A stretch of 9,240 nt of DNA from Escherichia coli (GTDB lineage: Bacteria > Pseudomonadota > Gammaproteobacteria > Enterobacterales > Enterobacteriaceae): the NCBI RefSeq assembly GCF_003334385.1, contig NZ_QOWN01000070.1. The stretch is one strand, 5' to 3'. Numbering within the stretch: position 1 is the first letter of the stretch; each line of letters opens with the position of its first letter. Positions 2,282 to 5,080 of the stretch are shown in pieces. The notes under the pieces are model-generated. The model saw nothing but the letters and a program-made list of their open reading frames with translations. It was not told the DNA's origin and searched no databases. The position numbers and the translations under genes are program-made.

Positions 2282-2322
2282 TTGATAGAATTTTCAGCCA
2301 CATAAAAATTCATTCTTATAAT
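2282..2322 (+). promoter_or_regulatory. Putative promoter elements upstream of the AT-rich cassette
   Basis: TATAAT at 2317-2322, 12 nt upstream of the ATG at 2335, and TTGATA at 2282-2287. The 29-nt spacing is too long for a canonical -35/-10 pair, so only the -10 is credible. Confidence 0.3.
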
Positions 2323-2334
2323 TCGGGATATATA

Positions 2335-3510
2335 ATGGATATAACTTGTTTAGAATGTGGCAATGTTCTTGACGACCCAACTGTAGCTTGCGATAAATGC
2401 GGTGCCACGCCTCATGTTGTAGTGCTGGGCAAACAATCGTACTTTCCTATTGGTGCTGTAACAGCAAATCTTGAAAAAAATGATTCAAGAGCATTTGATT
2501 ATCGATTAGGTGAAGTTTGGGATCTAAAAAATGAAGTCACATCTGAATTCATAACCAGAATTGAGAAAAAATTTAGCCGAAAAAACAAATTTCATAACTT
2601 CCTAGACTCAGATCACAACCCTTCATCCATTCCTACGATCCTAAAAAAATACATTAATAAAAATAATGAATTCATTGATTTATCTAGAGCTATAATAGAG
2701 AAGCTTAAACATAATGCTAATAACGAATCGAGAGTTGCCCAACTTCAGGGGGGGAGCGTTGTTTTCATCCACTATAAGTCTACCGAACCAGAGGATTTGG
2801 GGAAACTTCTAATCGTAATGGTTGATAAACAAAGCGCCTATGACTTTGATTCGGATAAGTTGACCCCAACAAGATTAAATCCAATTAATACCGATGCCTT
2901 ACGGCAGGCTGCGATGTTCGATTTAACTTTATTCGAAGCCAGTTATCCAGAAAACAAGGGTGACTCATATGTACATTTCTTGCAAGGTAAATCTAAAAGC
3001 GATTTTTTCAAAGACTCATTAGGTTGCCGACATGATTCGGACAATAAAAGAAGCATTCAGCAATTATTCAGTGCTATAGATATTTTTGCTAGTAAAAACT
3101 CACTCGGTCGTGTACTGCGTGATACTATTGACAATGAAGTTAAATCCTTACTGGAAAAAAAATCAAAAGATAAACACGGAAATAAGTCCGTTAAGATAGA
3201 GGATATTTCAAAAATAATTGACTCATGCCTGACTGATTCACACAAATGTAAGGGAACGTTTGTCGATTTTGTTAATCTTAATGGTTTCCAGATTGACCCT
3301 CAATTTGAACCAACTCCTAAAGCAGCTGAAAGCGCGCTTACAATTGAAGTGGCAGATAACGACAATAATTTTAAGTTGAAAATAATGCGTGGAGCTATTG
3401 GAGACGAAAAGTCAAATAAGCCTGTAATTCTCACTGACAACAAATGCGAAATTGTGATAAAATTGAGTCAGGCAAATTATGATGAACTCAAAAGATATAG
3501 AGACAGCTAA
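2335..3510 (+). CDS. Cassette gene 1: N-terminal zinc-ribbon fused to an NdpA/YejK-like (NA37 family) nucleoid-associated-protein-like domain
   Basis: ORF track, 391 aa. The DNA is AT-rich (about 30% GC on a sampled 60-nt line, versus about 58% on a sampled line in the helicase gene). CxxC-x10-CxxC at C5, C8, C19, C22. The motifs GGSVVFIHY ... LLIVMVD ... AAMFDLTLF ... YVHFLQGKSKSDFFKDSLG match the order and spacing I recall for E. coli YejK (GG-V-LF-HY ... LLVAVL ... ARIDLTEW ... [22 protein letters not shown]). From memory, not verified. Confidence 0.8.
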   Translation: MDITCLECGNVLDDPTVACDKCGATPHVVVLGKQSYFPIGAVTANLEKNDSRAFDYRLGEVWDLKNEVTSEFITRIEKKFSRKNKFHNFLDSDHNPSSIPTILKKYINKNNEFIDLSRAIIEKLKHNANNESRVAQLQGGSVVFIHYKSTEPEDLGKLLIVMVDKQSAYDFDSDKLTPTRLNPINTDALRQAAMFDLTLFEASYPENKGDSYVHFLQGKSKSDFFKDSLGCRHDSDNKRSIQQLFSAIDIFASKNSLGRVLRDTIDNEVKSLLEKKSKDKHGNKSVKIEDISKIIDSCLTDSHKCKGTFVDFVNLNGFQIDPQFEPTPKAAESALTIEVADNDNNFKLKIMRGAIGDEKSNKPVILTDNKCEIVIKLSQANYDELKRYRDS

Positions 3511-3512
3511 TA

Positions 3513-4727
3513 ATGACAATTGCTGATGACTTATCAAGATTAGCGCAGATTATTAACGGAGCCTCAAGCAGAGTTGAGGGCTACTACACTGTCATAAGTC
3601 TTGAAGAAAGCATTGTTATTGTAAATAGTTCTGAAATAATTAGACTGTTACAATCTATAGGTTATAAAAAGGCAACAACCTGCATCGAAAATAATGAAAT
3701 TTGGCTAGATCGCCAAGCTTCATCTTGGGATGACGCTATAATTTATGAGAATGTTGAGTCTTTTTGGTCTAGAGTAAACACCCAAAACGCTCTTCCGAAA
3801 AATTATATCATCGGAACGCCGTTAATACTCCCTACTTCTAAGAATGAAAGCATCGAAAAAATCCATATTTTCTTTATGTGGAAAGATATCCTTTCATTAA
3901 TTGCTGATCATCATAACAGTGACTGCTCTGTCTTATTTTTCACCAATGAAGACAAAAGTTATACAGTCGAACTCACGCATTTTTTACAATATAGCGAGAT
4001 TAATCGCTTATCGAACTCGTCTCTTAAATATGAAATTATAAAGGAGCTTCTCGACACAATAAAAATCAATGATTTACACAAAAGCGAGCGCAAGCTCGTT
4101 ATACGCTCAGCCATAAACGAAGTATTTAAAGCAAATGGTACGTTCAATTTCTTTGACTTGCTTAACTCTACTGAACTCGTCAGGAAAAAATATGATGAAC
4201 TATATGAGATTTACACAAAGAGGTTTTCTGTAAATAAAATTCTTAACGAACTCGATGAGAAAAATCTTGAGTTCACGAGTAAAATTAACGAATTCATATC
4301 ATCTAATCAGACAAAAGCATTGACTATTCCCGGTGCATTAATAGCTGCTGGTGGCTTAGTGAAGGCTAATGAAACAACCGAAGCAATATTGATTATCGCA
4401 GGACTTTGGATGATAAAAAAAGTCAATTACATTTCTATTGAGATATTCAATGAAACATTCGACAACTTACGTTCTCGAGTGGAGTCCGCTTTCGATAAGT
4501 ATTTAAAGTTTGAAGAAAATAAAGAAATCAAAGATAATGCAGATAGTATTAAGAGTAGCATTACAGGTTTGATTGATAAAGCTAAAAAAAGGATGAGAAC
4601 TGTTAAATATCTCGCATCAGCCATGTTTTATGGAGGCCTTATTTACGTTGGATATAAACAGTTCCCAGTCTTTTTTGAAAAATCGGCAGTAAATCTATTT
4701 TATTTTTTATGCCATACTATAAGCTAA
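3513..4727 (+). CDS. Cassette gene 2: predicted membrane-associated protein of unknown function (candidate effector)
   Basis: ORF track, 404 aa. The ATG lies 2 nt after the gene 1 stop, indicating an operon. AT-rich. Hydrophobic segments ALTIPGALIAAGGLV and AILIIAGLWMI (about nt 4318-4420) and the C-terminal YLASAMFYGGLIYVGY (about nt 4608-4680). No catalytic motif recognised. Confidence 0.8.
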   Translation: MTIADDLSRLAQIINGASSRVEGYYTVISLEESIVIVNSSEIIRLLQSIGYKKATTCIENNEIWLDRQASSWDDAIIYENVESFWSRVNTQNALPKNYIIGTPLILPTSKNESIEKIHIFFMWKDILSLIADHHNSDCSVLFFTNEDKSYTVELTHFLQYSEINRLSNSSLKYEIIKELLDTIKINDLHKSERKLVIRSAINEVFKANGTFNFFDLLNSTELVRKKYDELYEIYTKRFSVNKILNELDEKNLEFTSKINEFISSNQTKALTIPGALIAAGGLVKANETTEAILIIAGLWMIKKVNYISIEIFNETFDNLRSRVESAFDKYLKFEENKEIKDNADSIKSSITGLIDKAKKRMRTVKYLASAMFYGGLIYVGYKQFPVFFEKSAVNLFYFLCHTIS

Positions 4728-5063
4728 CATTGCTAAACAGCCGTCAACAAACCCCATTGCAGTTTGCAGTTCCTTCCTAATTGTGCCATCAGAGCATTTT
4801 CTCTTCTTCGCAATAGTACGTAATGAGATACCGATAACAAAGTGGGCGATGATGAGCTCATATTCCTCTGGTTTATACCTTCTCAACCGAGCCACACAAC
4901 TGTCTATCATGATGCCTTCGTCATCATCACACTGAATCCGTGACTTTTTGCCATGAGGTAAAAGTCCCTTGAAACCAGCCGCTATCGGCTGCCAGTCCAC
5001 TCCGCTATTGTCTGAAGCAGCCCAAGCTCCCCAACGATCCATTACTTCATACATATCACGCAT
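4707..5063 (-). CDS. Phage antitermination protein Q (QuuD-like small Q family)
   Basis: The ORF track calls 4707..5078 from a TTG. I prefer the in-frame ATG at 5061-5063, which has GGAGA 6 nt upstream and gives MRDMYEVMDRWGAWAA..., matching the M-R-D...ERWGAWAA start I recall for DLP12 QuuD-type Q proteins. The 3' end overlaps cassette gene 2 convergently by 21 bp. Confidence 0.75.
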   Translation of the reverse strand: MRDMYEVMDRWGAWAASDNSGVDWQPIAAGFKGLLPHGKKSRIQCDDDEGIMIDSCVARLRRYKPEEYELIIAHFVIGISLRTIAKKRKCSDGTIRKELQTAMGFVDGCLAMLAYSMA

Positions 5064-5080
5064 CAACTTTCTCCACAAAA

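Follow-up and report, generated by a model that had tools for sequence, protein, structure and literature searches.

Genes and features of the locus

The window, that is, the whole 9,240-nucleotide stretch of Escherichia coli DNA that was analysed, carries on its + strand two adjacent genes. The upstream one (positions 2335..3510) encodes protein A, a YejK-like nucleoid-associated anti-phage protein of 391 residues that is identical (391/391) to WP_000355468.1, the first protein of the DS-1 system (D390 in Table S8 of the DefensePredictor study, PMC13092281). The downstream one (3513..4727) begins 2 nt past the stop of the first and encodes protein B, a presumed membrane effector of 404 residues, which matches WP_000150292.1 at 399/399 of the residues printed in the same table. 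The amino acid sequences, the order of the genes and their spacing are all identical to those of DS-1, with no difference at the sequence level. Because both proteins are sequence-identical to the published ones, the pair is DS-1, an already known and experimentally validated defence system.

Family models and annotation pipelines give the same assignment. The NCBIfam equivalog NF053868 (DS1_1_antiphage) scores 451.4 bits on residues 10-377 of protein A (cutoff, 330 bits), and NF053869 (DS1_2_antiphage) scores 375.2 bits on residues 46-378 of protein B (cutoff, 315 bits). In NZ_CM167690.1, which contains identical DNA, PGAP assigns the accessions WP_000355468.1 and WP_000150292.1; the products are named by PGAP ‘nucleoid-associated anti-phage protein’ and ‘anti-phage protein’, respectively. 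Neither protein was matched in PADLOC-DB v2 (2023), a silence that is uninformative because the library predates DS-1.

The start of protein A was placed at the ATG at 2335, the first start codon past an in-frame TAG at 2275, a GTG at codon 30 being the sole alternative in-frame start within codons 1-70. The idea that the cysteine-rich N-terminus described below could derive from a mis-called start was rejected, both on the position of this ATG directly after the in-frame stop and on the retention of the cysteine codons down to approximately 30% overall identity. A candidate promoter region (2282..2322, + strand), proposed from consensus matches, comprises TTGATA-16-AAAAAT at 2282-2309, with 9/12 promoter matches in a region where hits are not above those of shuffled sequences, and a perfect TATAAT at 2317-2322, as read off the sequence.

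The two genes lie within a low-GC accessory module, or ‘moron’ slot (2288..4740, no strand assigned), delimited by its base composition and by the breaks in phage homology. This 2.45 kb slot adjoins the prophage Q gene on the downstream side and has a GC content of 0.33-0.37 as opposed to 0.52-0.56 in the flanks. Homology with phage mEp460_4F5 ends at 2287 and restarts at 4741, and this phage has another + strand gene at the place of the DS-1 cassette, the strand of which is opposite to that of the phage genes. The neighbours (a tRNA cluster and genes for the Q antiterminator, DUF968 and DnaB-like and DnaC-like proteins) confirm the prophage setting suggested by the first-pass annotation, and the cassette is a low-GC accessory insert just past Q in a lambdoid E. 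coli prophage.

The DS-1 pair is present in 106/5426 complete E. coli genomes (approx. 2%), O104:H4 strains among them. A nucleotide search of the INPHARED phage genomes matched only the left flank (positions 2200-2287 of the window) and not the cassette, while a search of phage proteins returned NA37 proteins of F116-like Pseudomonas phages with approximately 20% identity; thus, DS-1 is absent from the records of isolated phages.

The YejK-like body of protein A

Residues 36-391 of protein A (2440..3507, + strand) form the NA37/YejK-fold body, which is the predicted DNA-binding, nucleoid-associated part of the protein, as indicated by Pfam, AlphaFold2 (AF2) and Foldseek. The profile search proposed by the first-pass annotation returned a significant match to Pfam NA37 (PF04245; E 1.5e-23), which covers residues 64-376 and positions 27-318 of the 325 of the model. 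In the AF2 model, the pLDDT of the body is mostly 84-95, with weaker blocks around residues 161-190. Similarity to a solved YejK structure, also anticipated, was found with Foldseek, which among PDB entries retrieved E. coli YejK (9be2) with E 1.8e-14, probability 1.00 and 359 aligned columns as the sole significant match, all others having E ≥ 0.2. At the sequence level, the matches to 9be2 had E values of 1.2e-9 for the sequence and 4.6e-19 for the profile. Superposition of the model on 9be2 yielded TM scores of 0.43/0.49 and an rmsd of 17.4 Å over the 359 columns, values that possibly reflect a different orientation of the domains with respect to each other.

The three motifs from which a YejK-like domain had first been recognized (GG-VVF-HY, FDLTLF and YVHFLQGK-SDFF) are found as GGSVVFIHY at residues 139-147, FDLTLF at 195-200 and YVHFLQGKSKSDFF at 212-225, and they fall on invariant or near-invariant columns of the family, namely Y147, F200, Y212, F215, G218, S220 and F225. 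Position 10 of the YejK model aligns with residue 43 of protein A, and residue 24 of 9be2 with profile position 45, in keeping with the earlier remark that host YejK has no N-terminal ribbon. Protein A was also considered as the host YejK orthologue, which was rejected given a score of 81.4 bits with NF001557, whose cutoff is 341 bits. Protein A belongs to a paralogous, mobile family distinct from host YejK.

The N-terminal zinc ribbon

The body is preceded, as first noticed in the 391-residue open reading frame, by a four-cysteine zinc ribbon of the CxxC-x10-CxxC type (2347..2400, + strand; CLECGNVLDDPTVACDKC), with the ligands arranged as C5-x2-C8-x10-C19-x2-C22. The ribbon is part of an acidic N-terminal extension formed by residues 1-35 (pI 4.35), which host YejK lacks. 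The assignment of the ribbon rests on the conservation of its cysteines. The Pfam zinc-ribbon models remained below threshold on protein A (Zn_Ribbon_1, E 0.14; DZR, E 0.32; Zn_ribbon_3, E 1.1), as a motif of about 20 residues would lead one to expect, and were set aside.

In a word-indexed search for homologues, all four cysteines were kept, always with the x10 spacing, in 33/33 of the ribbon-bearing proteins, so that the conservation expected by the first-pass annotation is complete. The other ribbon positions drop to 7-36% identity, except that a glycine directly follows the knuckles in 76% and 94% of these sequences. Because four cysteines at a fixed spacing persist in all 33 homologues while the remaining positions have diverged, the ribbon is not a chance cysteine pattern, and this conservation argues for a real, selectively maintained knuckle that is predicted to bind a metal. 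In the AF2 model, calculated without metal, the ribbon has pLDDT values of 58-66, residues 3-4 and 11-12 form short strands, and the linker at residues 26-33 falls below 50; the ribbon is thus predicted to be flexibly tethered to the body.

The fusion of the ribbon with a YejK-like domain, initially regarded as unusual, turned out not to be so. Table S8 of PMC13092281 already lists protein A as ‘ZF 3-43 + YejK 42-382’ on the basis of HHpred, which in the same work related the ribbon to HypA with a probability of 0.83 and to NinF at 86%. In a search in which the family was reduced to clusters at 50%, the ribbon is present in 11/37 clusters, with spacings from x8 to x11, and another three have four-cysteine variants, for a total of 14/37. 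The clusters outside this ribbon-bearing fraction of approximately 40% mostly have acidic, disordered tails devoid of cysteines, or else no extension at all, the latter being the case of a Vibrio-type clade that persists without it. Where extensions are present, they are net acidic in every clade (from −2 to −7). Among 93 weaker NA37 matches that were checked, no full-length sequence has a ribbon, and the sole ribbon match is a 54-residue fragment of a DS-1-like ribbon protein.

Two ribbon-less homologues, P0089 and P0095, exceed the DS1_1 cutoff, and their partners are of the DS1_2 type, one of them scoring slightly below the cutoff (310 rather than 315 bits). At another homologous locus, P0092, a gene encoding a 446-residue protein lies downstream. 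The exchange of the ribbon with acidic tails, or its absence, next to partners of the same type suggests that it is accessory rather than part of the core of protein A.

Protein B

The first-pass annotation missed the functional pairing of the protein A gene with the downstream open reading frame at 3513-4727. The A and B genes co-occur as a pair across Enterobacterales, Pseudomonas and Vibrio-like clades. The AF2 model of protein B (mean pLDDT, 84.3) and its hydropathy profile, from which alone the membrane topology is derived, describe a soluble N-terminal α/β domain followed by long helices and by C-terminal hydrophobic helical hairpins. The first hairpin is at residues 269-309 (4317..4439, + strand), with Kyte-Doolittle peaks spanning 267-309 and model helices at 271-284 and 288-331; the near-invariant columns at approximately 226-284, the most conserved stretch of the protein, directly precede it. 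A second pair of hydrophobic segments is found at residues 363-403 (4599..4721, + strand), with Kyte-Doolittle peaks at 363-380 and 384-400 and model helices at 337-383 and 385-403. Residues 1-270 are mildly acidic (pI 5.28; 38 D/E versus 30 K/R; net charge, −8).

A Pfam search of protein B returned no domain, and a fold search of the PDB gave no significant match (best E, 0.38). The non-significant fold matches include the α-pore-forming toxins AhlB, SmhB and MakA, and CorA, to be taken as a lead only.

Defence activity and proposed mechanism

DS-1 is one of the two-gene systems of DefensePredictor (Science 2026, PMC13092281), in which its defensive activity was found and replicated. The two-gene unit cloned in MG1655 (construct pCV1-D390) provides up to 7.6 logs of protection, and the first of the nine parts of Table S7 reports −log EOP values of 7.6 for Bas1, 2.7 for Bas26, 1.7 for Bas3 and 1.7 for T3. 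The DS-1 rows in that part include Bas1, Bas3, Bas26, T3, T5, T7 and SECphi27, and T4 is absent among them; the range of phages affected may be wider than these values indicate. The first proposal, of a YejK fold put to a new use by a prophage, is supported in that the identical protein belongs to a validated anti-phage system.

A mechanistic framework is offered by the PANGU systems, described in a recent preprint (bioRxiv 10.64898/2026.04.06.716658). The type II systems consist of a nucleoid protein, Pag2A, and a transmembrane effector, Pag2B, whose N-terminal domain is acidic and whose transmembrane region is C-terminal. In the E. coli system (PANGU-Ecu), both genes are required and the phenotype is that of abortive infection; Pag2A exits the nucleoid upon T4 infection, and it binds the N-terminal domain of its partner at 19 nM. 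Non-specific DNA binding and co-localization with the nucleoid were reported for both Pag1A and Pag2A, and the PANGU nucleoid protein was found to bind an acidic DNA-mimic surface. T4 escapers of PANGU mapped to the nuclease EndoII. The mechanism was mainly established with type I, which employs a toxSAS effector, and the account of type II stops short of the activation of Pag2B by Pag2A. The words ‘zinc’, ‘cysteine’ and ‘ribbon’ are absent from the text of the preprint, as is ‘DefensePredictor’ (bioRxiv 10.64898/2026.04.06.716658).

By analogy with PANGU, we infer a similar mechanism for the DS-1 pair. In a healthy cell, protein A would reside on the host chromosome, from which it would be released as the phage degrades the host DNA. 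Once free, protein A would bind protein B at its N-terminal domain and trigger this membrane effector, so that growth of the infected cell would stop and the spread of the phage would be blocked, leading to abortive infection. The locus is read with considerable confidence as DS-1 on a prophage cassette, acting most likely by a PANGU-type release mechanism and equipped with an accessory ribbon. The nucleoid-targeting part of the role originally imagined for protein A gains support from the preprint, in which YejK-like proteins of such operons are reported to sense the integrity of the nucleoid (bioRxiv 10.64898/2026.04.06.716658).

Possible roles of the N-terminal module

The best guess for the acidic N-terminal module is a regulatory or protein-contacting function, through which it might tune the release from DNA or the binding of the partner, or meet a phage factor. 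It is conceivable, if somewhat doubtful, that the ribbon or acidic tail is a specificity or trigger module contacting protein B or a phage protein, be it an activator or an inhibitor, in which case swaps of the N-terminus would alter the phages that are sensed or the ease of firing. Indeed, variation in this otherwise well-conserved protein is greatest at the N-terminus, with a ribbon, a tail or neither in different clades; the surface residues of the ribbon have strongly diverged around a fixed cysteine scaffold, and acidity is kept throughout. Furthermore, as an acidic DNA mimic is the ligand of the PANGU nucleoid protein, an acidic N-terminal tail could compete in cis. However, in the Vibrio-type clade a protein with no extension functions, or has at least been retained, and AF2 docks the ribbon nowhere with confidence.

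A regulatory element in a narrower sense, either a DNA or partner mimic acting in cis to set a damage threshold or a dock for a phage protein, is put forward tentatively and is on the unlikely side. If it were so, the mimic would set the amount of chromosome damage at which the sensor is released, the dock would serve a phage trigger or an anti-defence protein, and the exchange of ribbon and tail would retune sensitivity or phage range. A regulatory N-terminal module is addressed by neither the DefensePredictor paper nor the PANGU preprint.

Zinc ribbons contact nucleic acids in many proteins, and the ribbon of protein A, with its strongly constrained cysteines, is attached to a predicted DNA-binding fold. 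These considerations would favour an added nucleic-acid-binding module conferring extra or specific recognition of DNA or RNA, such as that of a phage, along the lines of the nucleic-acid-sensing role advanced by the first-pass annotation. Against it, the ribbon and extension have a net negative charge in all clades (from −2 to −7, with a pI of 4.35 here), sister clades with cysteine-less tails or no tail keep the partner and pass the family model, the non-cysteine surface residues are poorly conserved, and the model shows the ribbon detached from the body. Being net acidic, replaceable or absent in sister clades and, as predicted, flexibly tethered, the ribbon is probably not the part of the protein that binds nucleic acid, and such recognition by it seems improbable.

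Finally, that protein A would serve the prophage by DNA binding alone (in chromosome organization, silencing or superinfection control), with no abortive-infection pair, is most improbable and largely refuted by the published phenotype of the two-gene unit: F116-like Pseudomonas phages do encode distant NA37 proteins (approx. 20% identity), and ‘nucleoid associated protein’ is the label of one PHROG family, but in the data of PMC13092281 considered, which are for the two genes together, the identical unit protects MG1655 by up to 7.6 logs, 2 nt separate the genes, the pair recurs in Enterobacterales, in Pseudomonas and in Vibrio-like clades, and the cassette has a foreign GC content, a swappable slot and a strand opposite to that of the phage genes.

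The importance of the locus as a discovery is limited, the pair being already published and annotated: the gene pair, the defence function, the YejK domain and the zinc-finger annotation are all in print, and RefSeq names both proteins. The pair, the defence phenotype and the ZF + YejK architecture are what was already known. What is added here is the invariance of the ribbon cysteines, the optional distribution of the ribbon, its net acidity and its predicted flexible tether. A nucleoid-protein-based immune cassette is confirmed in a swappable slot just past Q of lambdoid prophages, and the ribbon emerges as an acidic module that is conserved but looks dispensable and that does not extend beyond the DS-1-type defence family. 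It offers a well-defined way to address the tuning of a nucleoid-protein sensor.

Comparison with known systems

Protein A shares with E. coli YejK/NdpA (9be2, NF001557, PF04245) the NA37 fold and the core motifs. The two are only approximately 19% identical, and the 35-residue N-terminal ribbon extension is found in protein A only; unlike host YejK, protein A is encoded on a prophage cassette of low GC content that also encodes a membrane partner. As for the published DS-1, the difference lies in the prophage background, with a DnaB/DnaC-type replication module here and KilA-N, RusA and Rha genes in the comparison genome L001.

With type I PANGU (Pag1A and the toxSAS GRel Pag1B), the likeness is that of a YejK-like sensor of host DNA degradation that activates a neighbouring effector. 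The type I effector is a soluble alarmone synthetase whose C-terminal domain mimics DNA, whereas that of DS-1 is a membrane protein with no recognizable enzymatic domain. Type II PANGU and DS-1, compared by architecture only, both have the gene of a YejK-like protein ahead of that of a partner in which a soluble N-terminal domain is combined with membrane helices at the C-terminus. The N-terminal domain of the type II partner is acidic, while the acidity of that of protein B is moderate. Type II PANGU was assayed on T4 and Bas34, and DS-1 was reported on Bas1, Bas26 and T3. Since the reported phages differ, and T4 is absent from the DS-1 rows in the first part of Table S7, the triggers of the two systems may differ. 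By its architecture, which connects the two systems, DS-1 would belong with type II PANGU.

Identification of the two-gene cassette

The zinc-ribbon/YejK-like protein encoded by ORF1 (2335-3510, + strand; 391 residues) and its partner encoded by ORF2 (3513-4727, + strand; 404 residues), which begins 2 nt past ORF1, form an anti-phage defence system, DS-1, that has been described before, validated by experiment and annotated in databases. ORF1 scores 451 bits against the NCBIfam equivalog NF053868 ('DS1_1_antiphage, nucleoid-associated anti-phage protein'; cutoff, 330) and ORF2 scores 375 bits against NF053869 ('DS1_2_antiphage'; cutoff, 315). The DS1 names trace to DefensePredictor (Science 2026, PMC13092281), where the YejK nucleoid-associated domain is one of the newly validated defence domains and where DS-1 (D390) is defined in the tables as WP_000150292.1 plus WP_000355468.1. 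The translations are identical to the sequences in Table S8 of that work (391/391 residues for ORF1; 399/399 for ORF2 over the printed residues). Recent PGAP annotations of identical DNA name the products 'nucleoid-associated anti-phage protein' and 'anti-phage protein'. The 2023 PADLOC-DB has no model for either. Among the entries of Table S7 (PMC13092281), the -log(EOP) values for DS-1 are 7.6 for Bas1, 2.7 for Bas26, 1.7 for both Bas3 and T3, 1.0 for T5, 0.9 for T7 and about 0 for SECphi27.

Genomic setting

The GC content across ORF1 and ORF2 is 34-37%, against 52-56% in the surrounding DNA. The locus of phage mEp460_4F5 shares both flanks, up to 2287 (93% identity) and again from 4741 (91% identity), and carries in the corresponding slot (3089-4629 of that locus versus 2288-4740 here) a different + strand gene of 308 codons, for which no NCBIfam or PADLOC match and no known family was found, and which is a candidate accessory or defence gene. 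As judged from these alignments, the cassette occupies a replaceable slot, a swap site directly downstream of Q. The Q gene (4707-5078, - strand) is convergent with ORF2, the 3' end of which (stop codon, 4725-4727) overlaps that of Q by 21 nt, and the variable module has its right junction (4741) within the last approximately 11 codons of Q. One complete E. coli genome has the cassette flanked by the Q antiterminator on one side and by the tRNA cluster, SASA esterase and lysis genes on the other, with the cassette on the strand opposite to them. Of 5426 complete E. coli genomes, 106 carry 80% or more of the cassette, O104:H4 strains included; nucleotide and protein searches of deposited phage genomes returned no phage that carries it.

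A short distance upstream of the cassette, a GC-rich hairpin (2193-2219; AAAAAACCCGCTCAGTGGCGGGTTT), bordered by an A-run on one side and a T-run on the other, reads as a putative intrinsic terminator on the - strand; it is absent from the list produced by a simple terminator scan. Between the cassette and the AraC-like gene lies a hypothetical 65-codon ORF (WP_000917737.1; 1871-2068, - strand), the only match of which, a marginal one to PADLOC SWIM_XIII (E 0.0047), is probably due to chance. The AraC-family regulator itself (1023-1736, - strand; 237 residues; approximately 43-44% GC) is most similar to YdeO, GadX and HilD, far under their cutoffs (106 bits versus 348); this, too, is probably an accessory gene of the prophage, and it could act on host regulons. 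The three-tRNA cluster (745-994, - strand) begins with tRNA-Arg(tct) (745-821) and tRNA-Arg(tcg) (836-912); the third tRNA, with a CAT anticodon (919-994), is called Met by ARAGORN and tRNA-Ile by PGAP in an identical prophage region. Lambdoid and Stx-type prophages usually carry these tRNAs in the interval from Q to the late genes. The sRNA family STnc100 (Rfam RF02076; gathering score, 47) is represented twice on the - strand, at 1-186 (134 bits, cut by the window edge) and 464-669 (141 bits).

The YejK-like body of ORF1

The ATG at 2335 is the first start codon past an in-frame TAG at 2275, and the only alternative in-frame start within the first 70 codons is a GTG at codon 30. The first-pass annotation described the protein accurately: the reading frame, the four cysteines (residues 5, 8, 19 and 22; CLECGNVLDDPTVACDKC) and the quoted motifs (at 139-147, 195-200 and 212-225) are all present. 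Its proposal of an NdpA/YejK-like domain was borne out by a Pfam NA37 (PF04245) match over residues 64-376 (E 1.5e-23). The one relative in the PDB is E. coli YejK (9be2), detected with E 1.2e-9 from the single sequence and 4.6e-19 with the 69-sequence family profile. The AlphaFold2 model built from the same family alignment (mean pLDDT, 85.6; pTM, 0.78; NA37 body mostly 84-95) had YejK as its sole significant Foldseek match in the PDB (E 1.8e-14, probability 1.00; TM 0.43/0.49, 19% identity). A score of 81 bits, where NCBIfam NF001557 has a curated cutoff of 341, shows that ORF1 is something other than the housekeeping YejK. The broad idea that a prophage has repurposed a nucleoid-protein fold was right, as was the statement that host YejK lacks the ribbon: the first approximately 35 residues have no counterpart in YejK.

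Conservation and possible role of the zinc ribbon

The ribbon was already noted in the supplementary annotation of DS-1, where Table S8 labels residues 3-43 as 'ZF' (HHpred 0.83 to HypA) and residues 42-382 as 'YejK', and a further table gives residues 3-26 as an 86% HHpred match to NinF, of the Zn_Beta_Ribbon clan (PMC13092281). It is carried by 33 of the 69 aligned full-length homologues, in all of which the CxxC-x10-CxxC spacing is exact and the four cysteines are invariant, even in distant clades where the other ribbon positions are only 7-36% identical to ORF1. On this conservation the predicted zinc ribbon is a real motif, and its distribution makes it optional within the family: Cys-less N-terminal tails of 21-35 residues, mostly acidic, are found in a Pseudomonas-type clade and of 14-48 residues in further clades, and in a Vibrio-like clade the extension is missing altogether. 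Two ribbonless homologues (P0089 and P0095) still score above the DS1_1 cutoff and are followed by DS1_2-type partners (322 and 310 bits versus the cutoff of 315; 28% identity to ORF2).

When 1.84 billion cluster representatives were searched exhaustively, the family, taken as full-length matches with E <=1e-30, comprised 37 clusters, with a strict ribbon (spacing x8-x11) in 11, four-Cys variants in three and neither in 23. Among 93 weaker NA37 hits, ordinary YejK-like proteins included, no full-length protein carried a ribbon, the single match being a 54-residue piece of a ribbon protein of DS-1-like type. A neighbour-joining tree built on the NA37 core places the ribbon in one large Enterobacterales clade and in a separate pair (P0071/P0092); it has therefore been lost or exchanged on more than one occasion. 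The N-termini of the family representatives P0216, P0219 and P0228 carry altered four-Cys patterns in place of the canonical one (e.g. CxxC-x8-CxC, CxxC-x11-CxxxxC), which suggests remodelling of the metal site in some lineages.

A nucleic-acid-binding role of the ribbon is argued against by its acidity (pI 4.35 for residues 1-40; net charge of −2 to −7 in every ribbon segment examined), by the net negative charge of most of the tails found in its place, and by its low-confidence, flexible placement in the model (pLDDT 58-66; below 50 for linker residues 26-33), where it is predicted to be loosely attached to the body. We favour, by inference, an accessory regulatory or protein-contact module. 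Neither the DefensePredictor paper (PMC13092281) nor the preprint on the PANGU nucleoid-protein defence systems (10.64898/2026.04.06.716658) mentions any test of a ribbon, and the words 'zinc', 'cysteine' and 'ribbon' do not occur in the text of the latter.

ORF2 and comparison with the PANGU systems

No Pfam domain was found in ORF2. Its AlphaFold2 model (pLDDT 84) shows an alpha/beta N-terminal domain followed by long helices and has no significant match among PDB folds (best E 0.38). The non-significant top matches repeatedly include the alpha-pore-forming toxins AhlB, SmhB and MakA, and also CorA; a pore-forming helical hairpin effector is weakly hinted at by the model.

PANGU systems are defined as operons of two genes, one of which encodes a YejK-like nucleoid protein that senses degradation of the chromosome caused by phage (10.64898/2026.04.06.716658). 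In type I, the nucleoid protein is reported to bind DNA only when it is long, and mutations in DNA binding to render the system constitutively toxic. In type II, the nucleoid protein is Pag2A and its partner is Pag2B, which has an N-terminal acidic 'DNA-mimic' domain and a C-terminal transmembrane region. In an E. coli example of type II, defence requires both genes, the phenotype is abortive infection, Pag2A-GFP departs the nucleoid upon T4 infection, and Pag2A binds the N-terminal domain of its partner at 19 nM (all from 10.64898/2026.04.06.716658).

ORF2 fits the description of Pag2B, with a soluble N-terminal part (residues 1-270; pI 5.28) and C-terminal hydrophobic helices (269-309 and 363-403). 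By architecture, the ORF1/ORF2 pair is a candidate relative of type II PANGU and of its E. coli example, PANGU-Ecu, and the likely mechanism of the pair would be of the PANGU type, with the YejK-like ORF1 as the sensor of phage-induced chromosome degradation.
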